64,000 bases of DNA, taken from a virus (taxonomy: Duplodnaviria; Caudoviricetes). Below are positions 1 to 29,399 of this stretch, piece after piece. The translations under genes and the position numbers were made by a program. The notes below the pieces were generated by a model that ran no database searches, was not told the DNA's origin, and saw nothing but the letters and a program-made list of their open reading frames with translations. Numbering within the stretch: the stretch's first letter is position 1; every line of letters starts with the position of its first letter. The stretch is taken from positions 1,040 to 65,039 of the IMG/VR virus record IMGVR_UViG_3300042402_003469. The stretch is one strand, 5' to 3'.

Positions 1-918
1 AGATTTCATACGATTAAACATTGTGTTTTTAATAGGAGCCAAAGATACATCAAATTTTGAATAATTCTTAGCATAAGATTGTACAGGTCTTGTCCAAACT
101 CTAACATAAGGTTGGTCATATTGATTCGGAAACTCTTCTTCTTTAAATTTCATTAAGTAATTAATGTAATCCTCACTTAACCCCATTCTATTTGTGGTTA
201 CAATCTGTTCGTACTTATTCCAAACAGTTTCTTCAGGTCTAATAGGTCTTTGTTTTTGTTCTCCCGTATCTCTATTAATTTCTGTAATAGTACCTCGAGT
301 GTCAAAACCACATAAGTAAATTTGTAAGTCTTTTCTATCTTCTAAATTAAATTTAGATAATGAACCTTCGATTAGTTTTAAATCGTGTAAGTGAGAAGAC
401 CCACCTAACCACCCAACTCGTAATTTATCGGACTCTAAGGTTGGTTCGTTAAACTGAGGTTCTTTTGGGTCGATTGCGTTTGGTAAAACAATAACATTCT
501 TATTTATTTTTCTAATTTCATTAGCAAATAAATTCGTTGTTGTTGTAACGTATCTTGCGGCCTTTAAATTCGCAACTATTTTTTCGTGAATTTTATGATT
601 TTTAATTAAATCGTAGATTGGGTGTTCAGGACCTGGCATCCAATAATCATCAATATCAACAATTGTTATAATACCCATATCGTTTAATGTCTTAAGGAGA
701 GTAGGGGTATTATCGTAGTTTTGACCTACAGTACGATGAATATGAACTATTTGATATTTTTTCCAATAATTCAAATCATCCACTTTTGGTGTATAATCGA
801 TATCTACGTGAAAATCTTCAGGATATAATTTCTGTAAAAAGATGTGAGGGTCAACTGACCTAAATTTTCCAACACCTGTTTTGTCGGATGGTAGTACTAA
901 TACGTTGATTTTAGCCAT
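1..918 (-). CDS. Glycosyltransferase, GT-B fold (GT4-like); runs off the window start
   Basis: Not in the ORF track. Manual translation from ATG at 918: MAKINVLVLPSDKTGVGKFRS...IVDIDDYW...VTTTTNLFA..NVIVLPNAID...RVGWLGGSSH..DL...FDVSLAPIKNTMFNRMKS. These motifs are typical of phage GT-B glycosyltransferases. Confidence 0.8.
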   Translation of the reverse strand, partial: MAKINVLVLPSDKTGVGKFRSVDPHIFLQKLYPEDFHVDIDYTPKVDDLNYWKKYQIVHIHRTVGQNYDNTPTLLKTLNDMGIITIVDIDDYWMPGPEHPIYDLIKNHKIHEKIVANLKAARYVTTTTNLFANEIRKINKNVIVLPNAIDPKEPQFNEPTLESDKLRVGWLGGSSHLHDLKLIEGSLSKFNLEDRKDLQIYLCGFDTRGTITEINRDTGEQKQRPIRPEETVWNKYEQIVTTNRMGLSEDYINYLMKFKEEEFPNQYDQPYVRVWTRPVQSYAKNYSKFDVSLAPIKNTMFNRMKS

Positions 919-965
919 TCTATTTGTTTTCCATAAGAATAACAAAAAAAAGGCAATAAAGAAAG

Positions 966-3556: not shown

Positions 3557-6500
3557 ATGGCCTATCAAAATATAAACCAGTATAATTTTAAGAAGTGGTA
3601 CCTTCTTAACAGGTCCGAGATACAGGATTTTTCCTTATCATCGGACGAAAGAGACTATAAGGAGGAAGTTATTTTCTCCCCAAACCTTATTGCTGAAAAT
3701 GACGGGAATAGGTTACCATTTAGTTTTGATTTAGATAATCCGAACAATAGTGAGTTGTTTGTATTGAATTATAACGCCTATAATCCATACAATAATTTAA
3801 TTTCTTCTAATTACTATAATCCAAATAATATTGACTTAACTTGTTATAGCTCACAAACAATTTGTGATATTGGGTTAACAGGTATTGATAACGGTCTTGT
3901 TGACCAAATGACAGGCGAGACCATTACAACTACTGAAGGATTATTGTCGGACTTCCAAAAATTCGATAGATTATCTTTCGATAGAAGATTAAAACTACAC
4001 CAAGTTACAGGATATACATCAGACCCTAATATTAGATTTTCTGGGTTACAAAAAGACATATCATATAACGTTGTATCAAAGATATCCCCAAAAATTGGTG
4101 TATATCACGAATTATATGGAGGATTTTACCAAGGTTTTTATAAATTATTTGGATACGATTATACTTTGTTTCCTGAAAGGGTTAATAAAGGTTGGTCGGT
4201 TGAGGTTTTACTTAAACCAAGATTTATTGATGAATTTACACCTCCTTCTAACCAAACAACTTTAAATAACTTTTATCCTAATAATAAGGACCTGTTCTTT
4301 TATTTAGGTACAAGAGCTGAAAATAAATTTTATCATAGTGCCAATGGGAGTCCTTTATCCGACCCTACTTATGTTAGGGTTACCGACCCACTAACTTGTC
4401 TTAAGACTTGTGGTTGCGCCAGTACCGCAATTACTAATTCTAATTGTATTTCGGTTTATCAAACTACTGAGACACCTGTTTCACCTGAACCTAATTGCGA
4501 ATGTGGATGTCAGGAAACTCCTGTTATCATAGGACCTGATAAGGACCCAAAATTAGATGACTTATCAAATGCGATTGCATTTAAACTTTGCGGTGACCCA
4601 CATAATCCTCAAATTGGTGTTAGAATTTTAAGATTTACAGGAGACTGTGTTACCACAGGAACCTGTTCAACCACAGGTGTTACATATCAAACAGGTTACA
4701 CTGTAGATAATTTATGTACACCTAAAGGAATTTATGATTTTTGTGAACAAGTTAATCCTGCGTTTTTACAACAAGAACATTGGGTTCAATTGGATTTGGT
4801 TTGGGAAAGATACACTTGGTTTGACACTTGTGACTTGTGGTATAAAGGTGGTTTAGGGTTAATAAGTGAAGACCCATATTTATTTTCATTAGTTAACGAA
4901 TCTGTTAAATTAATTCAACCTAAATCTGACGTAGGTCCTGATATTGATAAAAGAATTGAGGTCGTTAGATTAAATGAAAGATGGTTAATTGAAAAAGAGT
5001 TTAGAAAAGGACGAATTAAAGTTTACGTTAATGGTAGAATATTCCACACCTTTGAGGATATTGAAGAAATAATACCGAGAGCTTTAGATACTGAAAAGGA
5101 AAGACAAGTCGGAGTCCCTTACAACGTATCTTGGGGAGGAGGTACTCAAGGGTTACATAATAATTTAACATTTACAGGATGTCCTGAATCATTAACAGGT
5201 TTAGTTTATCAACAAGACCCAGAATGTTTACCGAATAACATATTACAAGGTACTTCATTATCAGGGTTAACAACCAACATTTTATTAGAACAAAATTTTG
5301 CAGGGTCATTTGATGGGGGTATATCTCAGTTTAGAATGTACACCGAACCCTTATCTGCAGATGAGGTTAAACATAACTTTTTACTATTAAAAGATAAGTT
5401 TGAGTTATTTGATTTTGATTGTCCTAATTGTACAGTAATAATCCCTATTACAACAACTACGACTACAATAAATCCCATTACGACAACTACAACTACAATA
5501 AATCCTATCACTACAACTACAACTACAATAAATCCTATCACTACAACTACTACAACAATAATACCTATTACAACCACCACAACTACTTTTTATCCCACAC
5601 CTACCCCAACCCCTACGATAACTCCAACCGTAACGCCAACCCCAACAGTTACTCCAACCCCAACAGTTACTCCAACACCTATTGAAAATTGTTTCTTATT
5701 ACAAGAAAACGGTTTTTATATTCTACAAGAAAATGGTGACAGATTAATAATACAATGTAATTCAACACCACCAAACGACATTAATTATTTGATTATACCA
5801 AATAATGATATTGATGGTAACAATATATTAAATAACGATTTAAAAGGAGACTATATCCCTAATAATGATTTAATCGGAGGGTTTATCCCTAATAATGATT
5901 TAAGTGGAAGGTTTGTCCCTAATAATGATTTAAGTGGTAAATTTGTACCTAATAATGATTTAAATGGAAACAATATTCCGTTTAATGATTTCTATGACAA
6001 TCACATACCAAACGATGGATTAGGTTCTGAAATAATACCAAATAACGATTTAATTCCCGAAATATTAGGTTTAAGTGGAGGATGTTTTACTTTGATAACC
6101 CAGCCTTACTTTTTTCCCGAACCAGGTAATATAATATTCCCCGAATTTTCAGCACCTAGTAGTCAGGGGTTATTAACACCAAATACGTTTGACGTTAATG
6201 GTGTTGATTTTAACTATATTGATAATGAAGGAAATGATTTATTTGATTATTTTAGTCCATTATTGTCTAACGACTATTTAATCTATTTTAGTCAAAATGG
6301 GAATACTGCAATATACCAAGGTAACCCAACTTCATTTGTTGTGGAGTTTGGAGGGTTTTATAATGGAGGTACTGATGGTGGTGAGGTAATGACATCACAA
6401 TTAATATTAATACAACCGTCACCTGTCGATTTTATTGAGGGTGAACCTGTTTGTGTTTGGTTTGAGTTGATAGTAACACCAACACCAACACCAACACCAA

Positions 6501-7201
6501 CACCTACTCCAACATCGACGCCAACTCCAACCCCAACTCCAACAGAAACTCCTACACCAACACCAACCCCTACACCAACCCCTACACCAACTCCAATTTT
6601 AGATGGATTTGATTACCCAAGTTTTGCTTCAATATCAGGACTTGAATTAGTCGGTACATATGTGAGTCAAACATCTAATGAAATTTATTTGACATCACCA
6701 ACTGTTGCCTCAACAGGTAATCTTTATAGGTCAACATCTGTTAGATATGATAGAGATTTCTCACTTGAATGGAAATCATATATTGGTGGTGGAACAGGTG
6801 CTGACGGATATTGTATACAATGGACAACAATTAATAATGCAAATGGAATTGGCGGTGGAGGTATCGGTAGAATAGCCAATCCATCAACAATACACGCAAT
6901 AGGATTTTACACTTACACAATTAATAATTTCCAATGGTTTAAGAATAATGTTTTACAATCAACGGATTCGGTTAGTGCGGGTTATTGGAGACAAGTATTA
7001 TATTTTTGGGCCGATTATAATCACACAAATCAAACGCTTGATTTATATTTTAGTAACGTGGATAGTAAACCTATTTCACCAAATAAACAATACACTAGTT
7101 TCTCATTTGATTCGACCCCTTATTATATAGGATTTGGAGCAGCAACAGGAGGTGCTCAAGATTATCATAATATAGTTGATTGGAAACTAACGTTTGTATA
7201 A
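3557..7201 (+). CDS. Large virion protein: ConA/LamG-like N-terminal part, Thr/Pro-rich linkers, C-terminal legume (L-type) lectin domain
   Basis: [24 protein letters not shown] resembles a LamG end. GADG...[18 protein letters not shown] is a legume-lectin signature. Also has a [14 protein letters not shown] motif and low-complexity repeats. Confidence 0.7.
5438..5680 (+). repeat. 30-nt tandem repeat encoding I(I/N)PITTTTTT x5, followed by a (PT/PTVT)n tract
   Basis: Visible in both DNA and protein. Confidence 0.9.
5771..6053 (+). repeat. About nine 10-aa repeats with a PNNDL core
   Basis: [60 protein letters not shown]...; cctaataatgattta recurs every 30 nt. Confidence 0.85.
6476..6594 (+). 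repeat. (Pro-Thr)n tract before the lectin domain
   Basis: [28 protein letters not shown]... Confidence 0.9.
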
Positions 7202-7243
7202 CACAAATAAAAAATAAACGATATTTATAAATAAAAAAATAAA

Positions 7244-9295
7244 ATGGCAATAGGAGTTAGAATAACAAGTAATAATTTATCGGGACAAACCGCAAATGTT
7301 ACGTTCCAACCAATGACAGGTGGAACACCAATTGACTTGGGTATTAGGACAATACCTTTCAATTATTATAGTGAATTACCTTATGGTGATTACACTATAT
7401 CATCAACTACATACGATTATGTTTATACTTTAACAGTTTCACAACCTTATGGACAAAACCAAAATTATATGCAATTAGGTAACGTTTCAGGGGAAACGAC
7501 CGTAAGTTTAGGGTTCTTAAACTTTAACGACTTTACCGCTGAAGTTATAGATTTAGGTGTTGATATGGAATATTGGAGTGTTTATAACTGGTATCCATTA
7601 TCTGAAAGTGGTTGTTTATTAGATTTTCGTAATGATGGTTATACTGAACGTTTAGCATTGTTTATAGATGTTAATGGGAATGTTGTTGAACAATTCAGTG
7701 CAACAACCTTTGACTCTAATTCTGGGGCGTTAGATGGTAGAATTGTATATTTCCGAGACCCTGACGGTGGTTTATTCTATTGGTTTAATGGTCAGTCGGT
7801 TTATCAATACACATTTGACCCAAATTATGAGACTTTAGACATTCAATGGGATTGGGACTCAACTTGTCAAGATGGTTCATTCTTTTTCATAATTAATAAT
7901 AGTGACAATGACACGTCATATTCATATAAAGTTAACAATAATGGTTCTACCGAATTAATTAATAGTTGGGATAATACTGTTGAAAGACGATATTATGGTA
8001 CGTATTATTCATCAAATTATTTTCACGAAATATCTGAATTAATAAGTGGTGATACTCTTATTAGTCTAAAAATTTATGACACGTCACTTAATGAGAAAGC
8101 TGATTTATCAATAGCGTCAAACACATACAACTCTTGGGACTTACAATGGTATGGTAACAAATCATTTAATATTATGATGTGGAATAGTACTGACGGTGAC
8201 ATTGATTATTTAATTCACAATTATAATGGTGTTACTGATTACGTTTCAACAACAACACACGTAAGAGGGGTTAATTACACTCAAAGAACAATTAATTCTG
8301 ACGGAAATTTTTACCCTGATGAAGTACCTGTTGGTGGTATTTTTATTTTCTTATATAATGGTACGGGAGCTTATTACGCTGGAGGTGGATATGAGGTTAG
8401 TTACTTAGATGTCATTTATAAATTAGAAAATCAAACTGAATTAACGACGTATGTTTTCCAAGATAGTGGTTCAAATGACAAAACTTTTGATATGAATTCT
8501 TGGGGTAATAAGACTTATTATACAATATGTTCGACAGGAGACACTAATTCGGCGGTTTTCTCAATAACTGAAAATGGTGTTAACATTACATCAACAAATG
8601 TTAGTTATAATGATATAAACGGGTCAAGTCGTGATTGGTTTGGAGATTATTTTAACTACAGTTATGTGACCGACGGTACTTCATACGCTAACAATAAGTT
8701 ATTCTTAAATGGTGAATTAGTTGATTCATTAGGATTTCCAATACCTAACTGGTATAATACTACGACAAGTTATGAAACGTTTTATACGACTAATTACGAG
8801 GTCGGGTATTATGTTAATAATCAAGTAACGGGGTATACACAAACAGAAGTATATCAAAATGTAAATACGTCATCAGATTATTACACTCAAGAATACTATT
8901 ATGAGAACTCAAATATTCTTTTGTATAATACTCAAAATTCAACCGCTAGAGTTTTAACTAAAGATTCATTAAGTAATCAATTTAGTTTACCTGAAGATTC
9001 GGGTGAAAGAGAATTAGTAATTGGTAAAGATAAATTCTTATACGTTTTTCTTACAAATTCCGATAACTTAAGAATCAATTTATATAATTTTAACGGAGCA
9101 CTATTAAATAGTACTATTGTTGAAGATGATTATTGGAGTGACATTTACGGAGTTAAAGATAGATATGTTGTAAAAAATAGTATTGATGGTCAATACCTAT
9201 TAACTATGATTTCTGATGATGAAATAAAACAAATTACAATAGATAATGAATATACCAGTTGGGATATGATAAACGATTACATATGGTGGGACTAA
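7244..9295 (+). CDS. Putative virion or fibre-associated protein, Tyr/Asn-rich and probably beta-rich
   Basis: 683-aa ORF, TATTTAT at 7222-7228, first gene of the fibre operon. Confidence 0.55.
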   Translation: MAIGVRITSNNLSGQTANVTFQPMTGGTPIDLGIRTIPFNYYSELPYGDYTISSTTYDYVYTLTVSQPYGQNQNYMQLGNVSGETTVSLGFLNFNDFTAEVIDLGVDMEYWSVYNWYPLSESGCLLDFRNDGYTERLALFIDVNGNVVEQFSATTFDSNSGALDGRIVYFRDPDGGLFYWFNGQSVYQYTFDPNYETLDIQWDWDSTCQDGSFFFIINNSDNDTSYSYKVNNNGSTELINSWDNTVERRYYGTYYSSNYFHEISELISGDTLISLKIYDTSLNEKADLSIASNTYNSWDLQWYGNKSFNIMMWNSTDGDIDYLIHNYNGVTDYVSTTTHVRGVNYTQRTINSDGNFYPDEVPVGGIFIFLYNGTGAYYAGGGYEVSYLDVIYKLENQTELTTYVFQDSGSNDKTFDMNSWGNKTYYTICSTGDTNSAVFSITENGVNITSTNVSYNDINGSSRDWFGDYFNYSYVTDGTSYANNKLFLNGELVDSLGFPIPNWYNTTTSYETFYTTNYEVGYYVNNQVTGYTQTEVYQNVNTSSDYYTQEYYYENSNILLYNTQNSTARVLTKDSLSNQFSLPEDSGERELVIGKDKFLYVFLTNSDNLRINLYNFNGALLNSTIVEDDYWSDIYGVKDRYVVKNSIDGQYLLTMISDDEIKQITIDNEYTSWDMINDYIWWD

Positions 9296-9296
9296 T

Positions 9297-9554
9297 ATGA
9301 GATATCAAACACAAATAACAGTAAAACTAAAAGGTCAAGGTAATTTACAAAATTACGTTACCTCACTTAATTTAAACGACAACATTACAGTTGCCGATTT
9401 TAAATCAGAAATTAAAAAAACAACTAAATTCTTAGACCTTTACACAATCGAAAAAGAGATTGTTTATTTAGGTAGTAACGAATTAAAAGATGATAATATT
9501 GTACCTAATAATAAATCAGGTTTACAATATTATATGGAATTAAATAAAAAATAA
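9297..9554 (+). CDS. Ubiquitin-like (beta-grasp) small protein without C-terminal diglycine
   Basis: QITVK...SLNLNDNITVADFKSEIKK...IVYLGSNELKDDNIV aligns by eye with ubiquitin QIFVK...TLEVEPSDTIENVKAKIQD...LIFAGKQLEDGRTL. One-nt gaps to both neighbours. Confidence 0.55.
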   Translation: MRYQTQITVKLKGQGNLQNYVTSLNLNDNITVADFKSEIKKTTKFLDLYTIEKEIVYLGSNELKDDNIVPNNKSGLQYYMELNKK

Positions 9555-9555
9555 A

Positions 9556-11361
9556 ATGGCGAATTTACCAATATCATTATTACCGAAAGCAACCACAGGA
9601 TATTCAGATTCTTTGATGGTTATCGTAAACTATAATACCGTTGCCTCAGGACAAACTGAGTCAATACCTTTTTCTGCGGTAACTAGAAGTGGTGAAAACG
9701 GAACCTCGGGAACGAGTGGCTCTTCAGGTATTAATGGTACTCCAGGTTCTAACGGAACTTCGGGTAGTTCTGGACAGTCAGGAACATCAGGTACTGATGG
9801 TACAAGCGGAACTTCAGGTATTGACGGTACAAGTGGTACTTCAGGGACTAGTGGTTCATCAGGAGTTAACGGGGTATCAAGTGGACAAGTTTTATTTTTC
9901 AATACACAAAATACTCAATCACCTTATTTTGAAATTTCCCCTGTTGCTGATAATCTTTCGGAAACAGGTGTAACAGTAAGTGTTTCAGCACAAACTGAAG
10001 GGGTTATTGCGGAATATCAAACACCTGTGTCCTACCCTGGTATTAATATATTACCTCCAGGTGTGTGGACTTTTAACTTACACGCATACAAAGAAAACCC
10101 AAGTGCGATTTTTGATATATTTTGTAGGGTATATAAAAGAGATAGTGGTGGTACTGAAACTTTATTATTTAGTACTGACCCTGTACCAGTAACAACATAT
10201 GCCCCTAATGTTGCAATGTATGTTACCGACGTATATCAGTCAGGTAGTACTTTAGATATTACCGATAGATTAGTTGTTAAAGTGATAGGTAAGAACAATA
10301 AACTATTTGACCAAGTATATTCTTTGACATTTGTTAGTGAGGGTACGAACCATTATTCATTTGGGACGACTACTTTATATTATTTAGGAGGTACTTCAGG
10401 TAGTAGTGGTACTTCAGGAAGTTCAGGTACAAGTAATGGGTCTTCAGGAACAAGTGGTAGTTCAGGGGAATCAGGAACTTCAGGTTCTTCAGGTACAAGT
10501 AATGGTTCTTCAGGAACTAGTGGTAGTTCAGGTGAATCAGGAACAAGTGGGTCATCAGGTATAAATGGTACTCCAGGTTCTAATGGAACTTCAGGTACAA
10601 GTGGTAGTTCAGGTGAATCAGGAACTTCAGGTATTGATGGTACATCAGGTACAAGTGGTAGTTCAGGTGAATCAGGAACTTCAGGTATTGATGGTACATC
10701 AGGTACTAGTGGTAGCTCAGGAGAATCAGGAACTTCAGGTACAAGTGGTTCATCAGGTACTAGTGGTAGCTCAGGAGAATCAGGAACTTCAGGTATAAAT
10801 GGTACTCCAGGTTCTAATGGAACTTCAGGTACAAGTGGTTCATCAGGTATAAATGGTACATCAGGAACAAGTGGTAGTTCGGGAACATCTCCATCAGTAC
10901 CTGAAAGATATTATGGTGCGTTTTATGATAATGGTATACAACCATTATTAGCCGCAAACACCCCCCAAGTGATGAGTGCTAACACCACAACATATTCTAA
11001 TGGTGTAATTATAAGTGGAGGAACTAGATTTGTTGTTGAAAATTCAGGTATTTACAATCTACAATTTTCTGCACAATTAAATAAAACTTCGTCAGGGACA
11101 GATGAAGTTGCAATATGGTTTAGAAAAAACGGTAATGATATTGTTAATTCAAATACCGAAATGCAAGTACCAAAACAAGGTTCTTCAGGCAAATTAGTTG
11201 CTGCTTGGAATATTATTGAACAACTAAATGCCAATGAATATTTGGAAATTGTTTGGGCATCTGCAGATACCACATACGAAATATTATATCAACCATCACA
11301 AGTAACACCTTATGCAAAACCAGAAACACCGTCCATAATTGTAACGGTAACTCAAGTTTAG
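9556..11361 (+). CDS. Collagen-like fibre protein (Gly-X-Ser/Asn/Asp triplets) with a C-terminal C1q/BclA-like trimerisation domain
   Basis: N-terminal MANLPISLLP resembles fibre N-termini; two G-X-Y blocks; C-terminal YYGAFYD...SGIYNLQFSAQL...IWFRKNG...YLEIVW. Confidence 0.75.
   Translation: MANLPISLLPKATTGYSDSLMVIVNYNTVASGQTESIPFSAVTRSGENGTSGTSGSSGINGTPGSNGTSGSSGQSGTSGTDGTSGTSGIDGTSGTSGTSGSSGVNGVSSGQVLFFNTQNTQSPYFEISPVADNLSETGVTVSVSAQTEGVIAEYQTPVSYPGINILPPGVWTFNLHAYKENPSAIFDIFCRVYKRDSGGTETLLFSTDPVPVTTYAPNVAMYVTDVYQSGSTLDITDRLVVKVIGKNNKLFDQVYSLTFVSEGTNHYSFGTTTLYYLGGTSGSSGTSGSSGTSNGSSGTSGSSGESGTSGSSGTSNGSSGTSGSSGESGTSGSSGINGTPGSNGTSGTSGSSGESGTSGIDGTSGTSGSSGESGTSGIDGTSGTSGSSGESGTSGTSGSSGTSGSSGESGTSGINGTPGSNGTSGTSGSSGINGTSGTSGSSGTSPSVPERYYGAFYDNGIQPLLAANTPQVMSANTTTYSNGVIISGGTRFVVENSGIYNLQFSAQLNKTSSGTDEVAIWFRKNGNDIVNSNTEMQVPKQGSSGKLVAAWNIIEQLNANEYLEIVWASADTTYEILYQPSQVTPYAKPETPSIIVTVTQV
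9691..9879 (+). repeat. Collagen-like block 1 (GTS/GSS triplets)
   Basis: Uninterrupted Gly-X-Y run. Confidence 0.9.
10390..10890 (+). repeat. Collagen-like block 2 (GTS/GSS/GES triplets, two single-Asn register breaks)
   Basis: Gly-X-Y run with GTSNGSS interruptions and internal 54- and 66-nt duplications. Confidence 0.9.
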
Positions 11362-11388
11362 ACTTATTCAACAAATTAAATAACAATT

Positions 11389-11419
11389 AAAATCCTCCAA
11401 GTATCTTGGAGGATTTTTT
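11389..11419 (+). terminator. Intrinsic terminator after the fibre operon
   Basis: AAAATCCTCCAAG-TAT-CTTGGAGGATTTT followed by T residues. Confidence 0.8.
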
Positions 11420-11468
11420 ATTTATATTACTTCTTTGTTTCTTATATTTTAGTATCTAAAATAATAGT

Positions 11469-12719
11469 ATGAAGATTTTTATTCAAATAGCGTCCTACAG
11501 AGACCCACAGTTAATACCAACAATCAAAGATGCCATCGATAAAGCTAAGAACCCAAAAAATTTAGTTTTTTCAATTGCAAGACAATTTCATCCTGAAGAT
11601 AAGTTTGACGATTTATCTGAGTATGAGAATGATGATAGATTTAGAATTTTAAACATTCCATTTGAAGAATCGAAGGGTGTTTGTTGGGCTAGACACTTGA
11701 CACAACAGTTATATCAAGAAGAAGAATATACGATGCAAATCGATTCTCATATGAGATTTGAAAAGAATTGGGATAAAACTTTAATTGATATGATTAAAGG
11801 TTTACAAAAGAAAGGTTATAAGAAACCATTATTAACAGGTTACGTTTCTTCATTTGACCCTGAAAACGACCCTAATGGTCGAGTTACGGTTCCGTGGAGA
11901 ATGTCTTTTGACCGATTCATACCTGAAGGTGCGGTTTTCTTTCTACCTGAGACAATTCCTGGATGGCAAGATTTAACAGAACCAATACCATCAAGATTCT
12001 ATTCTGCTCACTTTGCGTTTACGGTTGGACAATTTTCAAAAGAAGTTCAACACGACCCAGAATTTTACTTCCACGGAGAAGAAATTTCAATTGCCGCAAG
12101 AGCGTATACCCACGGTTATGATTTATTTCATCCACATAAAGTTGTTGTTTGGCACGAATATACTCGTAAGGGTAGAACAAAACAATGGGATGATGATAAG
12201 ACTTGGGGTGAAAAGAATTCAAGAGCTCACGCTAAGAATAGACGATTATTTAGTATGGATGGTGAAGTATTCGACCCTGAAGAGTTCGGTATTTTTGGTT
12301 TTGGTACTGAAAGAACTCTTAGAGATTATGAAAAATACTCAGGACTTCTTTTTAGTAAAAGGTCCGTACAACAGTATACGTTAGATAAAAAGTACCCACC
12401 AAATCCTAATCCTTACGAAAACGATGAGGATTGGATGAATAGTTTTTCATCGGTATTTAAACACTGTATTGACGTTTCATTTAGTCAAGTACCTGAAAAT
12501 GATTATGAATTTTGGGCGGTTATTTTTGAGAGAGACGGGGGACAAGAGTTGTTTAGAAAAGACGCGGATAAAAATGAGATATCGAGACTTATGTCAGATA
12601 AGGATGGGTATTGTAAAATTTGGAGGGAATTCCAAACTTCCGAAAAACCGTCAAAATGGGTCGTTTGGCCGTATTCAACATCTAAAGGATGGTGTGATAA
12701 ATTAGAAGGAAAATTATAA
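11469..12719 (+). CDS. GT60-like polypeptide O-GlcNAc transferase (Gnt1/Gnt2 family)
   Basis: IFIQIASYRD, GVCWARH, QIDSHMRF (DxH), F.GEEI...R.YTHGYD..HP...VWHEY are hallmarks of the GT60 family. Confidence 0.8.
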   Translation: MKIFIQIASYRDPQLIPTIKDAIDKAKNPKNLVFSIARQFHPEDKFDDLSEYENDDRFRILNIPFEESKGVCWARHLTQQLYQEEEYTMQIDSHMRFEKNWDKTLIDMIKGLQKKGYKKPLLTGYVSSFDPENDPNGRVTVPWRMSFDRFIPEGAVFFLPETIPGWQDLTEPIPSRFYSAHFAFTVGQFSKEVQHDPEFYFHGEEISIAARAYTHGYDLFHPHKVVVWHEYTRKGRTKQWDDDKTWGEKNSRAHAKNRRLFSMDGEVFDPEEFGIFGFGTERTLRDYEKYSGLLFSKRSVQQYTLDKKYPPNPNPYENDEDWMNSFSSVFKHCIDVSFSQVPENDYEFWAVIFERDGGQELFRKDADKNEISRLMSDKDGYCKIWREFQTSEKPSKWVVWPYSTSKGWCDKLEGKL

Positions 12720-12722
12720 AAT

Positions 12723-15395
12723 ATGTTAATACCTCATTATACTCCGTCGAGTGTTAAAAACAGTAATAAAGACATTATTAGTGCGGGAATTTCAGAGAAT
12801 AATGTTAAAATACTAAAATTAACTAAACACTATAAGAATCCCGTTTTTTACCCTAGAAAGTTTGAAAAATGGTCCGACACATTTGAAGTGACTCAAATGG
12901 ATGATGTTATTCAAATCAGGAGGACTGATAACCCAAATTTAGGATGGGGGGAATCGTTATTAATTGACGTTGAGTATGATTTATTAGACACATCTAAGGA
13001 ACTGTCCTCACAAAAGATACCTAGAGTTATCTATCAAACATTCAAAACCAATGAAGTGCCTAAAGGGATGTATGAATCTATTAATAGTTGGAAGACTTTA
13101 AATCCTGAATACGAACATTATTTTTACTCCGATAATGAATGTGAAAATTTTATTGAAAAATTTTTTGGGATTAAAGTGTTAAACGCTTATTTAGACTTAG
13201 TTCCAGGTGCGTTTAAAGCCGACCTATTTAGATGTTGTGTTTTATATGAAAAAGGTGGTGTGTATGTTGATTCTGATATGATATGTTTGAAAAGTTTAGG
13301 AGAATACATTGAACCTAACGATTCGTTTATTGTTGGGAGAGATGACCCGATGTCTAAAAGTTTTTTATATAACGCCTTTATGGCTTCAGAACCTAAAAAC
13401 CCTATTTTTAAAAAAATGATTGACGCCATTGTTGAAAATGTGTCTAATCGTAAAGATATATATTATTTGGATATATGTGGTCCAGGTCTTTTAGGAAAAA
13501 CTGTAAACAAAGTTTACGGACTTAATGAAAATAATGAGTATGAATTAGGGTTACAAGATTTCAATGGGGTTAATGTAAAAATATTAAAACATAATTGGGA
13601 AACTAAAACAATTAAATTAGGGGATGTTGATTTGGTATATACCGAATACCCTGATAAAAATAGAGAAATGACAGAATTAAAAATTCCAACATACTATTCT
13701 TTATACACAAATAAAACCGTTTATCGAGAAATACCCAGAAATATTTACTACCCAACCTACGACCATTTAAGTCTAAATCAATATATGGTTGACTCGTTTA
13801 AAAATAAAAATAAAAGATGGAATTTACAACATTACACTAATAATGATTTTTTAAAGTTTTTTGAAGAATATAATGAAGAATTAAAAACGTTAATAGGTGT
13901 AGATACTTTATCGTATTTTTTAACATTACATAATGGAGGAGAAAAGTCCGATTTTTGGAGATATTGTATAATTTATTTATTTGGTGGGGTTTATACCGAC
14001 TCCGACACTTATTGTAATGTACCTCTAGACCTGTGGACTATTAATCACGATTTAATTTTAGGTATTGAAGCTAATTTACCTCTTGAGGTTGCTGAAACTT
14101 TTGGGATGGACAAAATCGGATATAATCATAATGGTTATGTAGTGTCAGTATGTAATTGGACTTTCGCGGCAAAACCTAAACATAACTTCTTTAAGAAATT
14201 AATTTTAGACATTTGTAATAACCCAATTAACGGTGATATTATAAACAATACAGGACCTGGTAGATTTACAAAACACGCAATAGACTATTTTTCAGGACAA
14301 GACCTATCCATATTAAACACGAATAATATATATCAGGATAAATCGGTATTGTTTAATATTAATAGATTTGGTTCTAATCAGTCACATTCTAATTCGTTTA
14401 AAAACTATTCAAACCCGTTTGATTGTAATGACGATGTTTATGTTGTCCATATGTTTGATGGTACTTGGAGGTCTAAAAGTAATAAATCAATAAAAACTAA
14501 TAAATCAAATCTTGGTATTTCTCATAATTTAACATTACTAAAAACAAACTCAGGATATAAAGGTGTCGGTAGATTAGATAAAGATACGTCAAGAACTCAT
14601 TTTATGAAAGTTATTGGTGATTGTCGGTCATTATTAGAAATTAATTATGATTTTGATTTTAATATTATTTCCGAATCCGAAAAACATATTACAGGTTTTG
14701 ACAATATTGCGAAATTTGAGGATTACCGATGGTTCACATTTAAGACTAAAAACTATCTTTGCGTTTCCTACATTGACGAGGACTTCAACACTAAAGTTTC
14801 TATTTTAAATGAGGACTATAAATTTTTGGGGGACGTTAAAATTGATGAATATAACCGAGTTTCATTTGTCGGTCCTGAAAAAATATGGGAGAAAAACTGG
14901 TTGTTTTTTGAAAAAGACGGTGAACTATACTTCATTTATTCGACTACCCCAAGATACGTGGTGTATAAATGCGTTAATTTTGAAACTTTAGAATTTGAAA
15001 AAAGTATCAACATTGAATGGCCGTTAAACGAGAATGTTCCTGATAATGAAGTTTATTTCACATCATATGTCGGGGGCCCAATTAAAATTGCCACAGGGGG
15101 GTCGTCAAACCCAATTTATATAGAAAGTCGAGGGGTTTACTTATATTTTATTCATACCAAATTTTATAGTGAAAAAAAATATAACCATTATGCGGTAATT
15201 TTGGATAAAAATATGTTACCAATTAAGTTTTGTACTAGACCAATAATTCACAAACTAATTCCTTACGACCTATTATTTGTCTCTTCTGTCATTGAGGTTG
15301 AGGACTACTTAGTGTTTTCGGGGGGTATTTCGGATAATACTAACTTTGTATGGGAATTATCTAAAGAACATATTTTTAAAATTATTGGGATATAA
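12723..15395 (+). CDS. Multidomain glycosyltransferase: two GT32 (OCH1-like, DxD) domains plus a C-terminal five-bladed-propeller-like domain (GT91/GH130-like)
   Basis: KIPRVIYQTF...KADLFRC..LY..GGVYVDSD...CGPG; EIPRNIY...KSDFWRY..IY..GGVYTDSD...TGPG; C-terminal FEDYR and EKNWLFF. Confidence 0.75.
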   Translation: MLIPHYTPSSVKNSNKDIISAGISENNVKILKLTKHYKNPVFYPRKFEKWSDTFEVTQMDDVIQIRRTDNPNLGWGESLLIDVEYDLLDTSKELSSQKIPRVIYQTFKTNEVPKGMYESINSWKTLNPEYEHYFYSDNECENFIEKFFGIKVLNAYLDLVPGAFKADLFRCCVLYEKGGVYVDSDMICLKSLGEYIEPNDSFIVGRDDPMSKSFLYNAFMASEPKNPIFKKMIDAIVENVSNRKDIYYLDICGPGLLGKTVNKVYGLNENNEYELGLQDFNGVNVKILKHNWETKTIKLGDVDLVYTEYPDKNREMTELKIPTYYSLYTNKTVYREIPRNIYYPTYDHLSLNQYMVDSFKNKNKRWNLQHYTNNDFLKFFEEYNEELKTLIGVDTLSYFLTLHNGGEKSDFWRYCIIYLFGGVYTDSDTYCNVPLDLWTINHDLILGIEANLPLEVAETFGMDKIGYNHNGYVVSVCNWTFAAKPKHNFFKKLILDICNNPINGDIINNTGPGRFTKHAIDYFSGQDLSILNTNNIYQDKSVLFNINRFGSNQSHSNSFKNYSNPFDCNDDVYVVHMFDGTWRSKSNKSIKTNKSNLGISHNLTLLKTNSGYKGVGRLDKDTSRTHFMKVIGDCRSLLEINYDFDFNIISESEKHITGFDNIAKFEDYRWFTFKTKNYLCVSYIDEDFNTKVSILNEDYKFLGDVKIDEYNRVSFVGPEKIWEKNWLFFEKDGELYFIYSTTPRYVVYKCVNFETLEFEKSINIEWPLNENVPDNEVYFTSYVGGPIKIATGGSSNPIYIESRGVYLYFIHTKFYSEKKYNHYAVILDKNMLPIKFCTRPIIHKLIPYDLLFVSSVIEVEDYLVFSGGISDNTNFVWELSKEHIFKIIGI

Positions 15396-15449: not shown

Positions 15450-15830
15450 ATGGAATTTTATATCAAAAAAAACGCAACATTACCTGTACTTAAAATGCAA
15501 GTCGTTAAAGACGGTAGAAGTGATTATCAAAACTTTATGGATTTGATAGAATCTTCTTCTATTATTTTTAGTATGGTCGATATTGAAACAGGTATTCCTA
15601 AAATAGTCTCTAAACGAGCGGGGTTTGTGTCAAAAACATTCATAGACCCTAACACTCCTACTGAATATTATATTTATTACACTTTCACAAAAAAAGATAC
15701 AAATAAAGTTGGTCGTTATGAAGGTCAATTTATGTTGAAAAATGAACAAGGAGACCTAATAGTTCCAATTAGGGAACAATTATTTATAACAGTCCAAGAT
15801 AGTTTTATTTCCGACACCGCTTGTTGTTAA
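15450..15830 (+). CDS. Small virion protein, BppU N-terminal/Ig-like
   Basis: FYIKKNATLPVL...YYTFTKKDT..VGRYEGQF...P pattern; TATTTAT at 15428-15434. Confidence 0.5.
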   Translation: MEFYIKKNATLPVLKMQVVKDGRSDYQNFMDLIESSSIIFSMVDIETGIPKIVSKRAGFVSKTFIDPNTPTEYYIYYTFTKKDTNKVGRYEGQFMLKNEQGDLIVPIREQLFITVQDSFISDTACC

Positions 15831-23653: not shown

Positions 23654-24169
23654 ATGAGTCAAAATAAAGTACCAATTACAAGATTAGGAAAGTTCTTCGG
23701 AGCGGAGGATTATCATTTAGATATTGATATGGGTAGAGAATGGTTAGAAGGTGATATGAACTTCACTTTAGTTTTATACAGGGTTGATAGATATAAAACT
23801 AAAACTGATGATGTTTATGGTGAAACTGTTTCTGACGGAATTAAATTCTTTCCACCTGTTCAGTTTAACGCGTTCTTACAAATAGTGGCACCTGAAAATA
23901 AATTTATGGGTAATAGTAAAGTTGAACAATTTGAACCAGGTAATGCAAGAATTTCGGTATATCAATCTCATTTAGACGAATTAGGTATTGATATATCCTA
24001 CGGTGATTATATTGGTTACTATGAAACTGAAACAAGAGTTAGATACTATGTTGTTGCAAATGACGGTAGAGTTGTGTCTGATAATAAACATACTTACGGT
24101 GGGTATAAACCATTCTACAGAACCATAGTGGCAACACCTGTAACCGCTGACGAATTTAGAGGATTATAA
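23654..24169 (+). CDS. Head closure/neck protein (T4 gp14-like); start probably ATG 23654 rather than 23624
   Basis: VLYRVD..KTKTDDVYGE...FFPPV...GDYIGY pattern; TATTTAT at 23643-49 immediately before ATG 23654. Confidence 0.6.
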   Translation: MSQNKVPITRLGKFFGAEDYHLDIDMGREWLEGDMNFTLVLYRVDRYKTKTDDVYGETVSDGIKFFPPVQFNAFLQIVAPENKFMGNSKVEQFEPGNARISVYQSHLDELGIDISYGDYIGYYETETRVRYYVVANDGRVVSDNKHTYGGYKPFYRTIVATPVTADEFRGL

Positions 24170-26045: not shown

Positions 26046-29000
26046 ATGGCAACAAACAGTAAAGTATTCGTGTCACCTGGAGTGTACACATCAGAAAGAG
26101 ACTTAAGCTTTGTTACTCAAAGTGTTGGTGTTACTACATTAGGGGTTGTAGGTGAGGCTTTAAAAGGTCCCGCTTTTGAACCTATCTTCATTAGTAGCTA
26201 CGATGAGTTCCAAACTTACTTCGGGGGAACGAACCCTGAAAAATTTATAAACACACAAATCCCTAAGTACGAATCGGCGTATATTGCAAAATCATATCTA
26301 CAACAATCTAATCAAATGTTTATGACAAGAGTATTAGGTTTATCAGGATACGATGCGGGTCCTTCTTGGTCAATTCAAACAATTGCTAACGTAGACCCTA
26401 CAACGATTAAGATGGATGAGGTTTGTGCTAGTGTTCCTAACTATAATGACAATACTTGTGACATTACTTGTACAGGAGTGTCTCTTAGTTTTGACGTTGA
26501 GTTCACAGGTTGTAGTAACCAAGATGGTTCTATTACTTATGTAACTAATTTCCCTGATGAAATTCAAAACATCATTAATAACCAATACACTAAATTCAAT
26601 GGTGGTGTATCTACATTAAAATCGGATATTAACCAACAGTTATTATCCATTTTTGCACAACCAAGTTTAAGTGGTACTTCAATTAACTATTGGGGTAGTA
26701 TTGATAATATTGATTACGATATTTTATCACCTGTATTTACAGATGCTAATAACGTATTAAACGTACCAAGTGTAAATGAAGCTGACACAGATTTTTCTTC
26801 TTCATTTAACGATTCTTGGTATTATTCATTATTTGATAATTTCAGTGGTGATAGTTATTCAGGTATGTCTTTTTGGACAGTAGTTTCGGAGTTAACTATG
26901 TTACCTAAAACAGGTACAACTACGACTACAACAACAACTATGAATATCACAACAACTACAACAACTTTAAACCCTTGTGCAACAACCACAACAACTTCAC
27001 CTATAACTACAACAACTACTACACAACCTGATTGTTTTACAGGTACACTTCACGGTAAAATTTATTACTACACAGGTACTTCTTACAGTAACTACAATAA
27101 TTTAATTGTGTCAACTTTAAGGTCAAGAGGTTTATCAACTTATGATACTACTAACGACGGACCGACTTATGAAGTTAGTGCGTTAAGTGCGGTTACTTTA
27201 GACTTTACAGGTAGTTATTCAGCGGTTAAGAAAAACCCATTCGCACCATTCGCTATTAATGTTACAAATAATGAAGGTAAGACATTTGTATTTAAAACTT
27301 CATTACAAGAGTCAGACGCAACTTACTTACCAAAAGTATTTGGTGGAAGTAATTTCGCTAAACCAAGAACTGAGGTTCCATTATTTGTTGAAGAAACATT
27401 CTCAAGTATGTTGAATTGGGCATTTAAGAAAGGATATATTAGAGGATTAAGAGCAGAATTAATTTCTACACCAGAATCTAGAAGTAATATCTCTTCAAGT
27501 ATTGGATACTATGGTGAGAGATATCAAACACCTGAATCACCTTGGTTGGTGTCTGAATTAAGAGGTACTAAAGTTTACAGATTATTTAAATTTATCTCAA
27601 TAGCTGACGGTAATTCGGCAAATGACCAATTGAAAATTTCAATTATGAATATGTCATTTGGAAATCAAACTTTTGATGTTGTTATCCGTGATTGGTATGA
27701 TACTGACGACGCACCAGTTGTGTTAGAAAAATTCACTAACTGTTCTATGGACCCTAATTTAAATAATTTCGTAGCTAAAAAAATAGGTACTGCTGATGGG
27801 GAATACGCGTTGAACTCTAAATTTGTAATGGTTGAAATAAATGAAGATGCACCTACAGACTCATTACCTTGTGGTTTCGAGGGTTATACTTTCAGAAACT
27901 ACGAATCATCAAAATCACCATTCCCTGTTTATAAAACTAAATACGATTTCCCAGGAGAAGTTATTTTCAACCCTCCATTTGGATATAGTAATGGTCAAGA
28001 TAACCCAGCAATTAGCGCGGGTGACAATGTAAGAAGAACTTACTTAGGTTTATCAACTGCTGCAGGTGCTGGATACGATTTAGATTTCTTCCAATATGTA
28101 GGTAAACAAAACTTAGGAACTACTTGTGACCCTGTATTACAAGATTGGTCTTATTTAACTAAAGGATTCCATATGGACTCAGGTGCGACTGTAGTTAAAA
28201 TTGCTGACTTATTCGCTACTTCAGGTAGAACGGCATTTGCAGTTGGTGATGCTGAATTTAGAAACGACCCAACAAATGCAAATAACCCTTATTATAGATT
28301 ATACGCGAGAAAATTCTCATTAATGGTTAACGGAGGTTTCGACGGATGGGACGTTTATAGAGAATACCGTACAAACTCCGATAGATTCCAAGTAGGTTCT
28401 TCAGGTTATTTAGCGGGAGCTTGTTACTCAGATAGATATCCAAACGCAACAGGTACAGGTTTGTTTAAACGTATCACTGTTGGAGATAATACTCAGGATT
28501 GGGCAAATACTGACTACTACGCATACCTATTAGGTCAAAAAACATTCTCAAACCCTGAGGCGGTAAACATTAATGTGTTTGTAACACCAGGTATTGATTA
28601 TGTAAATAATAGTAACTTAGTTGAACAAGCAATTGAAATGATTGAGTACGATAGAGCGGATTCATTATATATCTGTACTACTCCTGACTTTAATATGTTT
28701 GTACCTTCAACTACGGATTCATTAGATATGATTTTCCCACAAGAGGCGGTAGATAATTTAGAACAAACAGGAATTGATTCCAACTACACCGCGACTTACT
28801 ACCCTTGGGTTTTAACTCGTGATACAGTTAATAATACACAAATTTACATTCCTGCGACTGCGGAAGTAACAAGAAACTTAGCGTTAACCGACAACATCGC
28901 GTTCCCTTGGTTCGCATCTGCGGGTTACACAAGAGGTCTTGTAAACTCAATTAAAGCAAGACGTAAATTAACACAAGAAGATAGAGATACTTTATATGTA

Positions 29001-29399
29001 GGTAGACTTAACCCAATTGCAACCTTCTCAGATGTTGGTACCGTAATTTGGGGTAACAAAACTCTACAAATTAGAGAGTCTGCTCTTGATAGAATCAACG
29101 TAAGAAGATTGTTATTACAAGCTCGTAAATTGATTTCAGCGGTAGCGGTTAGATTACTGTTCGAACAAAACGACGCGAAAGTTAGACAAGATTTCTTGGA
29201 TGCGGTTAATCCTATCTTAGACGCTATCAGAAGAGACAGAGGTTTATACGATTTCCGTGTAACAGTATCATCATCTCCTGAAGACTTAGATAAAAACCAA
29301 TTAGTAGGTAAGATTTATATTAAACCAACTAAAGCGTTAGAATTCATCGATATTGAGTTCTTGATTACACCTACAGGTGCATCATTTGACAATATCTAA
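26046..29399 (+). CDS. Contractile tail sheath protein
   Basis: SPGVYTSERD, KGPAFEP, YYPWV, PWFASAGYTRG, WGNKTL...RINVRRL, IKPTKALEFI. Confidence 0.95.
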   Translation: MATNSKVFVSPGVYTSERDLSFVTQSVGVTTLGVVGEALKGPAFEPIFISSYDEFQTYFGGTNPEKFINTQIPKYESAYIAKSYLQQSNQMFMTRVLGLSGYDAGPSWSIQTIANVDPTTIKMDEVCASVPNYNDNTCDITCTGVSLSFDVEFTGCSNQDGSITYVTNFPDEIQNIINNQYTKFNGGVSTLKSDINQQLLSIFAQPSLSGTSINYWGSIDNIDYDILSPVFTDANNVLNVPSVNEADTDFSSSFNDSWYYSLFDNFSGDSYSGMSFWTVVSELTMLPKTGTTTTTTTTMNITTTTTTLNPCATTTTTSPITTTTTTQPDCFTGTLHGKIYYYTGTSYSNYNNLIVSTLRSRGLSTYDTTNDGPTYEVSALSAVTLDFTGSYSAVKKNPFAPFAINVTNNEGKTFVFKTSLQESDATYLPKVFGGSNFAKPRTEVPLFVEETFSSMLNWAFKKGYIRGLRAELISTPESRSNISSSIGYYGERYQTPESPWLVSELRGTKVYRLFKFISIADGNSANDQLKISIMNMSFGNQTFDVVIRDWYDTDDAPVVLEKFTNCSMDPNLNNFVAKKIGTADGEYALNSKFVMVEINEDAPTDSLPCGFEGYTFRNYESSKSPFPVYKTKYDFPGEVIFNPPFGYSNGQDNPAISAGDNVRRTYLGLSTAAGAGYDLDFFQYVGKQNLGTTCDPVLQDWSYLTKGFHMDSGATVVKIADLFATSGRTAFAVGDAEFRNDPTNANNPYYRLYARKFSLMVNGGFDGWDVYREYRTNSDRFQVGSSGYLAGACYSDRYPNATGTGLFKRITVGDNTQDWANTDYYAYLLGQKTFSNPEAVNINVFVTPGIDYVNNSNLVEQAIEMIEYDRADSLYICTTPDFNMFVPSTTDSLDMIFPQEAVDNLEQTGIDSNYTATYYPWVLTRDTVNNTQIYIPATAEVTRNLALTDNIAFPWFASAGYTRGLVNSIKARRKLTQEDRDTLYVGRLNPIATFSDVGTVIWGNKTLQIRESALDRINVRRLLLQARKLISAVAVRLLFEQNDAKVRQDFLDAVNPILDAIRRDRGLYDFRVTVSSSPEDLDKNQLVGKIYIKPTKALEFIDIEFLITPTGASFDNI

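Follow-up and report, generated by a model that had tools for sequence, protein, structure and literature searches.

What would a bacterial virus do with eukaryote-like glycosyltransferases (GTs) encoded directly downstream of its fibre-like genes? This question is raised by a stretch of 64,000 nucleotides (nt), hereafter called the window, which makes up most of the 65,039-nt IMG/VR virus record IMGVR_UViG_3300042402_003469 (positions 1,040 to 65,039). In the window, a GT60-type transferase (P0005) and a four-domain enzyme with two GT32-like domains and a β-propeller (P0006) follow four genes (P0001 to P0004), some of whose products contain Ser/Thr-rich linkers or collagen-like tracts (Table 1). 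An original prediction, made from the DNA letters alone, had proposed that the enzymes initiate, extend and cap mucin-like glycans on the virion rather than on DNA. After comparison with related viral contigs, we consider it probable, at roughly 0.6, that these genes form a module with which the phage O-glycosylates proteins of its virion surface in the cytoplasm.

The window has a G+C content of ~32% and encodes a tail sheath, a gp19-type tail tube, T4-type baseplate proteins, gp32, a DnaB-type helicase, a ribonucleotide reductase and a family-B DNA polymerase (PolB). To judge from this gene content, it is a fragment of a jumbo myovirus, and the CheckV completeness of 22% for the record implies a whole genome of roughly 300 kb. 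A giant eukaryotic virus, as suggested by the eukaryote-like GT families and the collagen, was rejected because the tail sheath, the gp19-type tube, the baseplate proteins and gp32 are encoded. The tail sheath is closest to those of Microcystis and Flavobacterium phages (30-35% identity). No cultured close relative was found by megablast of the GT region or by tblastn of the N-terminal domain of P0001 against a phage collection, in which this domain had no homologue. The open reading frames (ORFs) on which the original prediction was built are all present where it placed them.

Table 1. Features of the locus and related features of the window (aa, amino acids; PT, Pro-Thr).
Feature	Position (nt)	Strand	Description
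P0007, putative glycosyltransferase	1..945 (ATG at 918)	-	cut by the window edge; phrog_7162 'glycosyltransferase', E 2.4e-30
P0001, modular fibre- or adhesin-like protein	3557..7201	+	1214 aa, from the translation
Candidate acceptor tract 1 (P0001 residues 630-708)	5444..5680	+	five TTTTTT runs, then PT linker; poly-Thr codon pattern 5450-5586
Candidate acceptor tract 2 (P0001 residues 974-1013)	6476..6595	+	(TP)n linker before the lectin-like domain; PT codon pattern 6479-6591
P0002	7244..9295	+	683 aa; between the fibre-like genes; relatives 30-84% identical or gene absent
P0003	9297..9554	+	85 aa, small protein; 93% identical in related locus L008
P0004, collagen-like fibre protein	9556..11361	+	601 aa; PF01391, E 4e-30, 103.7 bits against a cut-off of 27.2
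Terminator-like hairpin	11389..11417	+	13-bp stem, then T-rich tail; from a consensus scan only
P0005, GT60-type transferase	11469..12719	+	416 aa; proposed initiating polypeptide O-glycosyltransferase
P0006, four-domain enzyme	12723..15395	+	890 aa; proposed glycan extender
o126, conserved ORF closing the cassette	15450..15830	+	126 aa; no Pfam match
Tail sheath	26046..29399	+	1117 aa; PF17482 and PF04984; homology to tail sheaths

P0005 would be the enzyme that starts the glycan. It is a firm member of PF11397, 'Glycosyltransferase (GlcNAc)', where GlcNAc stands for N-acetylglucosamine; it matches this family, which we take to correspond to CAZy GT60, in two stretches up to residue 294 (232.2 bits against a cut-off of 21, E 1.5e-68), and it also matches phrog_24687 (E 6e-167). 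The DxH motif D92-S93-H94 is kept in at least 90% of the rows of a 23-row alignment that includes one stray GT32 protein, and residues 300-416 form a conserved C-terminal extension of ~115 aa. Family membership and motif together bear out the GT60-like character that had been assigned to this gene. A PDB sequence search found no solved GT60 relative, and NCBIfam returned nothing. In GT27 and GT60, a DxH replaces the DxD motif and both families carry out polypeptide Ser/Thr O-glycosylation, as described in passages of PMC7185993, and the GT60 enzyme TcOGNT1 of Trypanosoma cruzi forms GlcNAc-alpha1-O-Thr on mucin-like proteins, as described in passages of PMC9472816. No transmembrane (TM)-like segment was detected in the enzymes or in the Ser/Thr-rich proteins of the window. 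The PF11397 family at large comprises 4,684 representative clusters at E <=0.001, and its domains also occur as 2-4 tandem copies in very large proteins (1,088-2,461 aa), including P0130-P0144.

P0006 consists of an N-terminal β-sandwich (residues 1-95), a first GT32-like domain (~95-313, with a DSD at 183-185), a second one (~334-577, with a DSD at 426-428) and a propeller (~587-890). Two stretches of the protein match PF04488, the GT32 DXD region (87.5 bits against a cut-off of 23). A profile of 40 homologues, among which D183, D185 and D428 are invariant and D426 is nearly so, matches fungal Och1 (9n3s, E 2.5e-19). In the AlphaFold2 model (predicted local distance difference test, pLDDT, 91), the C-terminal domain is a five-bladed β-propeller, and the predicted GT32-GT32-propeller architecture is thus confirmed by the PF04488 stretches and the model. 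Structural comparison with VIA-align relates residues 334-577 to Och1 (Z 21.4, root mean square deviation, rmsd, 2.6 over 223 residues) and residues 95-313 to YeGT (Z 18.2). The propeller (residues 587-888) is closest to the GH130 β-mannoside phosphorylase 7fip (Z 24.1, rmsd 3.1 over 266 residues), followed by the GH130 mannoside synthase 9erg (Z 23.4) and the Leishmania GT108 enzyme MPT-2 (Z 19.1), with lower scores for GH43 enzymes (Z ~18). Foldseek E-values for the propeller range from 6e-12 to 1e-7. Its sequence has no Pfam GH130 match at E <=0.01 and is 12-16% identical to the fold matches; its invariant polar residues are R617, E666, D667, R669, E723, K724, N725, H811 and D871. Because of these fold matches, the propeller is best labelled GH130/GT108-like instead of GT91-type, as it had originally been called: the best matches are all GH130 or GT108, and searches of P0006 by Pfam, PDB sequence and fold turned up no GT91 enzyme, although the structures compared may not include one. 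NCBIfam gave nothing for P0006. In terms of known enzymes, its domains match Och1, GH130 phosphorylases together with the Uhgb_MS synthase (Z 23-24), and MPT-2, and we know of no characterised enzyme in which a GT32-GT32-propeller fusion is combined with an N-terminal β-sandwich. Relatives of P0006 number 151 proteins at E <=0.001; the 120 listed are 41-93% identical, cover 59-100% of the query and are mostly near full length.

The gene neighbourhood of P0005 was compared among related phages. A scan of viral contigs returned 409 stretches with P0005 relatives, of which the best 80 loci were kept (71-98% identity, contigs up to 322 kb); the set consists of related and in part redundant loci (83 GT60 sequences, 59 of them distinct). 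Their layout is conserved: the divergent o285 gene of the backbone is followed by a P0001-like gene and further ORFs on the + strand, then by the GT60 gene and a variable stretch of 1-10 ORFs, with an o126-like ORF and PolB at the end. The GT60 gene is present in all 81 loci examined (L003-L083), where it is kept between hypervariable Ser/Thr-rich ORFs on one side and a variable cassette of glycan enzymes on the other. The 288 same-strand ORFs upstream of GT60 have a median Ser plus Thr fraction of 0.232, reach at least 0.20 in 61% of cases and often contain PT, poly-Thr or collagen runs; for comparison, the median is 0.117 for 356 other ORFs, with 8% at 0.20 or above, and 0.111 for 359 cassette ORFs. 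The ORF immediately upstream of GT60 lies on the same strand and has a fraction of at least 0.20 in 68/81 loci. GT60 is conserved to a similar degree as PolB (median identities of 73.3% and 73.9%, 36 loci), but the GT60 value is inflated because the loci were chosen as best GT60 matches. The o126-like ORFs that close the cassette (n=86) have a median Ser plus Thr fraction of 0.18, with 44% at 0.20 or above, and many relatives carry a long PT- or poly-Thr-linked extension.

Across these loci, the variable cassette comprises 361 ORFs in 61 sequence clusters, or 197 ORFs after dereplication. In five cassettes (L005, L006, L024, L026 and L076), Pfam identifies TylF- and CmcI-type sugar O-methyltransferases, FkbM, a HAD-nucleotidyltransferase fusion, GT25, DUF3431 and a terminal HtrL_YibB-type protein, and a cassette ORF from L017 matches GT34. 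A Pfam tally over a random 143 of the 178 eligible dereplicated ORFs, of which 25 of 32 families were shown, gave HtrL_YibB (24), FkbM (11), Methyltransf_24 (11), GT25 (8), RMNT_CmcI (8), GT10 (5), TylF (4), GT34 (4), GT2 (4) and PLOD-GT (2), with one each of GT7, a GT31-type enzyme, a sulfotransferase, GNAT and NDP-sugar synthesis. The tally thus consists of families that build or decorate glycans, together with a few general methyltransferase, hydrolase and acetyltransferase families, and none of the 25 families shown is a nucleic-acid-modification family. A TM-like segment was found in 1/197 dereplicated ORFs, which points to a soluble pathway without Wzx/Wzy-type machinery. The cassette of the window itself is the single gene P0006, which among the 80 loci recurs only in one 93%-identical contig and in L003. 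The PLOD-type GT domain (PF25342) of two cassette ORFs belongs to a family that glycosylates collagen hydroxylysine.

The pairing of the two enzymes extends to a second, podovirus-like lineage. A profile scan with P0006 yielded 80 loci. Nearly the whole query was covered in 31, including two that are truncated at a contig edge. In 29/31 loci, a GT60 homologue (35-98% identity) lies at most one ORF away from the P0006 homologue, L091 and L113 being the exceptions. Most of these loci are contigs of 7-60 kb that have no other gene in common with the window at E 1e-5, which indicates that the pair has moved between unrelated phage types. The typical order is a giant PT-linker protein (1,865-2,100 aa), a 147-aa ORF, GT60, sometimes a methyltransferase, a GT32-GT32-propeller gene whose product (762-773 aa) lacks the N-terminal sandwich, and a second PT-linker protein. 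The giant protein of L106 has a match to phrog_14478 'virion structural protein' (E 6e-126), and the PT protein downstream of the pair hits phrog_38031 and has weaker matches to virion-structural PHROGs; flanking PT-linker proteins of this lineage also match phrog_15100 'virion structural protein'. By tblastn, the giant protein resembles annotated structural proteins of the Cellulophaga podophages phi13:2, phi18:3, phi19:3 and phi46:3 (33% identity) and of Flavobacterium podophages. On these matches, the GT60 and P0006 pair of the second lineage is placed inside a virion module, and a Ser/Thr-rich ORF is among the two nearest large ORFs per side in 24/29 pairs.

Which proteins of the window could serve as acceptors? 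The genes upstream of P0005 had been described as an operon of Ser/Thr-saturated virion proteins. The PT and poly-Thr linkers of P0001 and the Gly-X-Ser collagen of P0004 are indeed present and rich in these residues, but the whole proteins are not saturated (Ser plus Thr 17.8% in P0001, 19.2% in P0002, 12.9% in P0003 and 32.3% in P0004, compared with 19.2% in the tail sheath). In addition, the terminator-like hairpin between P0004 and the GT genes makes it probable that the fibre-like genes, although next to the GT genes, do not share an operon with them. The virion assignment of P0001 to P0004 is itself a prediction, and only P0004 has tail-fibre PHROG matches.

P0001 starts with an N-terminal domain of ~625 aa, followed by a poly-Thr/PT linker, Asn/Asp-rich repeats, a second PT linker and a C-terminal lectin-like domain. 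Relatives conserve the N-terminal domain (47-92% identity) but vary in the C-terminal parts. Residues 1036-1104 give a weak legume-lectin Pfam match (E 9e-6, under the cut-off), a protein-atlas search leads to viral ConA-like/Laminin_G_3 clusters (score 0.96), and a PDB sequence search found nothing meaningful except a match over the PT-linker region. An AlphaFold2 model of residues 1-625 from a 14-row alignment had a pLDDT of 39 and was discarded. The repeats between the two linkers (residues ~740-835, nt ~5775-6060) comprise ~10 tandem copies of the Asn/Asp-rich unit (I/V)PNNDL(x)G(x)(x), for which no family was found. P0002 has no match in Pfam, PHROG or PDB and only weak protein-atlas leads (scores <=0.79), and Pfam and PHROG searches of P0003 revealed no family. 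In P0004, Gly-X-Ser/Thr triplets occupy residues 46-108 (nt 9691-9879; 21 triplets) and 279-445 (nt 10390-10890; 43 triplets), whereas the middle and C-terminal domains, outside the collagen tracts, are globular. The protein matches the tail-fibre PHROGs 6320 and 5073 (E 1e-30 to 1e-31), largely via the collagen repeats, and the phrog_5073 match reaches the non-collagen C-terminus, to residue 578. The tail sheath matches sheath families only over its last ~300 residues and contains a large N-terminal/central insertion with a poly-Thr tract of T5-T8 runs (residues ~289-330, nt ~26910-27035; codon pattern 26916-27022), which resembles the P0001 linker in style. This tract provides a link to the virion within the window and makes the tail sheath, as a definite virion protein, a possible further acceptor.

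Several lines of evidence therefore favour a glycan on protein: GT60 is conserved between hypervariable Ser/Thr-rich ORFs and a variable glycan cassette; in the second lineage it is linked with P0006 among virion structural genes; the enzymes are soluble, and the three complete relatives have one thymidylate synthase gene each, canonical in the one checked; and the phage XacN1, which has a GT60 homologue, was reported to have virion glycoproteins (PMC5852040). In the mechanism that we propose, soluble P0005 would put the first sugar, by family analogy an alpha-linked N-acetylhexosamine from a UDP-sugar, on Thr or Ser residues within extended tracts of freshly synthesised structural proteins. 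In P0001 the acceptors would be the poly-Thr/Pro-Thr linkers and in the tail sheath the poly-Thr insert; the Gly-X-Ser collagen of P0004 might be another. P0006 would lengthen the chain, its Och1-like GT32 domains probably adding an alpha-linked hexose or mannose and its GH130/GT108-like propeller probably a β-linked mannose, although transfer, phosphorolysis and trimming are all conceivable for the latter. Relatives would keep the initiator and swap the extenders, as in an O-antigen locus, which would result in lineage-specific glycans on hypervariable fibre or decoration proteins. Of the pathway as originally outlined, its location on the virion rather than on DNA is best supported after comparison, but the sequence of initiation, extension and capping is not established, and an order such as 'extend then cap' cannot be assigned.

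Other targets of the enzymes have to be considered. Soluble GTs could modify host cytoplasmic proteins in a toxin-like manner, or intermediates of the lipopolysaccharide (LPS) core or capsule, and thereby serve host takeover or block superinfection, in which case the proximity of Ser/Thr-rich genes would be a coincidence. In P0006, the GT32-like domains do resemble the glycosylating domains of SetA, YeGT and PaTox (profile E 1e-6 to 1e-4; fold Z ~18), P0006 has a weak TcdA_TcdB Pfam match under the cut-off, the HtrL_YibB and GT25 families of the cassettes are named after LPS-core loci, and PHROGs places P0005 and P0007 in the class 'moron, auxiliary metabolic gene and host takeover'. Nevertheless, we regard a host target as unlikely: the cassettes contain no flippase, polymerase or polyprenyl-phosphate transferase and are almost free of TM-like segments, the GT60 and P0006 pair lies within virion structural modules of an unrelated lineage, and an O-antigen-like variable cassette beside hypervariable fibre genes fits poorly with a conserved host target. 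Furthermore, the characterised GT60 members described in the consulted parts of PMC7185993 and PMC9472816 act on Thr-rich polypeptides, and it is only for polypeptide O-glycosylation that GT60 is discussed there. The latter point also bears on DNA hypermodification, in which the GT60-type enzyme and the cassette would glycosylate modified phage bases and thus evade restriction. In the jumbo lineage the GT block immediately precedes PolB, and in XacN1 and Xoo-sp13 it has PolB and RNase H close by; the hairpin parts the block from the fibre genes; and phage GTs that place diverse glycans on DNA exist, as cited in PMC12619734. Yet each of three complete relatives has a single PF00303 gene, and the one PF00303 protein checked has thymidylate synthases only among its 60 best PDB matches (E 1e-70 to 1e-55), so that no hydroxymethylase candidate was found in these relatives. 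A Tet_JBP match was absent from 5/5 records, which is weak evidence because the control search matched in no genome either. Cassettes of 1-10 genes with sugar O-methyltransferases, fucosyl- and galactosyl-type GTs and a sulfotransferase look more like the equipment for a protein or polysaccharide glycan, and the second-lineage pair again lies among structural genes, which makes DNA as the target distinctly improbable.

We give very little credence to a further alternative, namely that some other soluble product (for example a small molecule, a free oligosaccharide or a phage protein outside the virion) is glycosylated and the neighbouring linkers stay bare. In its favour, the acceptors named above are candidates, the TylF, CmcI and FkbM methyltransferases of the cassettes also occur in natural-product pathways, and PT linkers are scattered across the genome. 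However, genes for a scaffold (polyketide or aglycone) are missing from the cassette tally, hundreds of phage contigs carry a GT60 gene about as conserved as their DNA polymerase, and the module is linked to structural genes across lineages. As an observation on the thymidylate synthase of relative L087, its match is split (model positions 1-154 and 158-265) by ~150 nt within a single 436-aa frame (G001:C1:60011-61096), which suggests an insertion in the enzyme.

O-glycosylation of virion proteins remains our preferred interpretation, but several points weigh against it. Activity, donor, acceptor and glycopeptide are unproven in this phage group, as is the virion status of P0001 to P0003, which have no phage-database homologue. 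PT and poly-Thr linkers are common flexible linkers that do not require glycosylation. Complete relatives carry such tracts at several genome positions and not only beside GT60; this is compatible with many acceptors, yet adjacency then carries less weight as an argument. Counts over loci that are related to each other are not independent events, and the choice of loci mentioned above flatters the conservation of GT60 relative to PolB. In the second lineage, 5/29 pairs have no Ser/Thr-rich ORF among the nearest large ORFs, and the enrichment is modest (36/93 neighbouring versus 22/80 distant large ORFs). The position of the GT block beside PolB or RNase H, together with its separation by the hairpin, would suit an early function in DNA modification. 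Finally, the main text of PMC5852040, as far as consulted, does not assign the XacN1 glycoproteins to genes.

Among the closest known systems are phages of Xanthomonas and Stenotrophomonas. P0005 is 44-48% identical to proteins of jumbo phages that infect Xanthomonas (XacN1, with ORF334 at 47%, and Xoo-sp13) or Stenotrophomonas (CM1 and RAS14). The block of XacN1 and Xoo-sp13 consists of the GT60 gene, a carbamoyltransferase, two ORFs and a 546-aa protein, with an HtrL_YibB match in XacN1. Thus, as in the jumbo lineage, a GT60 gene heads a glycan-enzyme cassette that ends in an HtrL_YibB-type protein, but the cassette includes a carbamoyltransferase and the annotated stretch has no adjacent PT or poly-Thr ORFs. 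For XacN1, at least two virion glycoproteins were described (Supplementary Fig. S4), and ORF328 and ORF334 were suggested as their makers; in the consulted part of that paper, the GT is given without a CAZy family, acceptor or comparative analysis (PMC5852040). In mycobacteriophages, phage GTs glycosylate virion proteins (Freeman et al. 2023, as cited in PMC12619734). They share with our proposal cytoplasmic, phage-encoded GTs and glycans on terminal or extended segments of structural proteins, but their acceptors are the C-termini of capsid and tail-tube proteins, instead of fibre linkers and a sheath insertion as candidates for a serotype-like variable cassette. PMC12619734, a 'moraphage' paper, also reports four core GT orthogroups in Bacteroidota jumbo phages and leaves their role unresolved.

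The protist GT60 enzymes (TcOGNT1/2 of T. cruzi and Gnt of Dictyostelium) share PF11397 and the DxH motif with P0005, and the Thr-rich and Pro-Thr tracts proposed here as acceptors resemble the T. cruzi mucins. They differ in being Golgi type-II membrane proteins or in acting on a hydroxyproline of Skp1, whereas P0005 is predicted to lack a TM segment, has a C-terminal extension and is encoded by a bacterial virus. In Dictyostelium, PTVT spacers of the spore-coat and PsA type bear O-GlcNAc, and a comparable stretch of ten residues occurs in P0001. Giant viruses (chlorovirus PBCV-1 with Vp54, and Mimivirus-type viruses) also encode their own soluble eukaryote-like GTs and sugar methyltransferases that are independent of endoplasmic reticulum and Golgi (as cited in PMC5852040). 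A further likeness is found in GVMAG contigs, where homologues of P0006 with a single GT32 domain have collagen-like neighbours. The hosts of giant viruses are eukaryotic, though, the glycans of PBCV-1 are N-linked, and we know of no GT60 initiator in giant viruses. The single-domain homologues (30-44% identity) occur in loci L123-L168, many of which are GVMAG giant-virus contigs; in several of these, the GT32 gene directly follows collagen-like ORFs and precedes conserved ORFs of ~680 (- strand), 195 and 612 aa, which by analogy may represent a collagen or fibril glycosylation unit of giant viruses. O-antigen and capsule loci, in turn, resemble the phage cassettes in their conserved flanks, hypervariable GTs and sugar-modifying and NDP-sugar enzymes, but the cassettes lack Wzx, Wzy and a polyprenyl-phosphate initiator, and the proposed carrier is a protein.

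A literature search found no description of a GT60/PF11397 phage module beyond the remark on XacN1. New with respect to the literature would be the assignment of the initiator to GT60, its conservation at polymerase level across hundreds of contigs, the variable cassette reminiscent of O-antigen loci and the movement of the initiator gene, together with the GT32-GT32-propeller gene, between lineages of myo- and podoviruses. Phages with glycosylated particles are considered rare, and the clear cases are a few mycobacteriophages. As a more tentative generalisation, which we think somewhat less likely to hold than not, many uncultured aquatic phages (jumbo myoviruses, and podoviruses probably of Bacteroidota) might wear a serotype-like glycan coat. 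A mobile module of a conserved GT60 initiator and a freely exchanged cassette would then place lineage-specific O-glycans on mucin-like linkers, whether in hypervariable fibres, in decoration proteins or even in the tail sheath, under O-antigen-like diversifying selection and with a role in host recognition or in the escape from host or environmental attack. If so, glycan coats would be a common, evolvable layer of the phage surface in natural waters, with consequences for host range, particle stability, protease resistance and stickiness to organic matter as well as for the interpretation of virion proteomes and cryo-electron microscopy maps of such phages, and the GT60 family would gain its first function in a bacterial virus. 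Because the enzymes are soluble, they could also become tools for the cytoplasmic O-glycosylation of PT or poly-Thr tags.

A third GT gene, P0007 at the start of the window, had been noted alongside the other two. PHROG annotates it as a glycosyltransferase, but it belongs to the conserved backbone, and a link to the GT60 module is not established. Its full ORF encodes 404-413 aa (G000:C1:743-1984) and has homologues of 61-75% identity at the same place in relatives; it is also ~26% identical to glycosyltransferases of Phapecoctavirus- and Justusliebigvirus-type coliphages. At full length it gave no Pfam or NCBIfam match and nothing meaningful in a PDB search. P0007 as a counterpart of the GT9-like ORF328 of XacN1 was rejected for lack of similarity (E 0.2). 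Its neighbour on the same strand, outside the window (G000:C1:289-741, - strand), is a 150-aa cytidylyltransferase-like gene (PF01467, E 4e-13) that falls under the cut-offs for glycerol-3-phosphate cytidylyltransferase and RfaE domain II, and which hints at a second activated-sugar or glycerol-phosphate step.

Other genes of the window deserve brief mention. Three very large ORFs on the + strand (34038-39698, 40011-46736 and 58560-63446; 1886, 2241 and 1628 aa) lie among the tail and baseplate genes; no Pfam match was found in the two that were scanned, and all three are probably structural. A 555-aa ORF (20121-21788, - strand) combines a complete Fe/Mn superoxide dismutase (PF00081 and PF02777, residues 37-226, E 1e-38) with a C-terminal region of ~330 aa without a family, and its relatives are 26-95% identical. 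Finally, the ORF at 24169-24717 (+ strand) encodes a mycobacteriophage L5 gp82-like domain (PF25735, E 2e-31), a family that is unexpected in a low-G+C aquatic myovirus.

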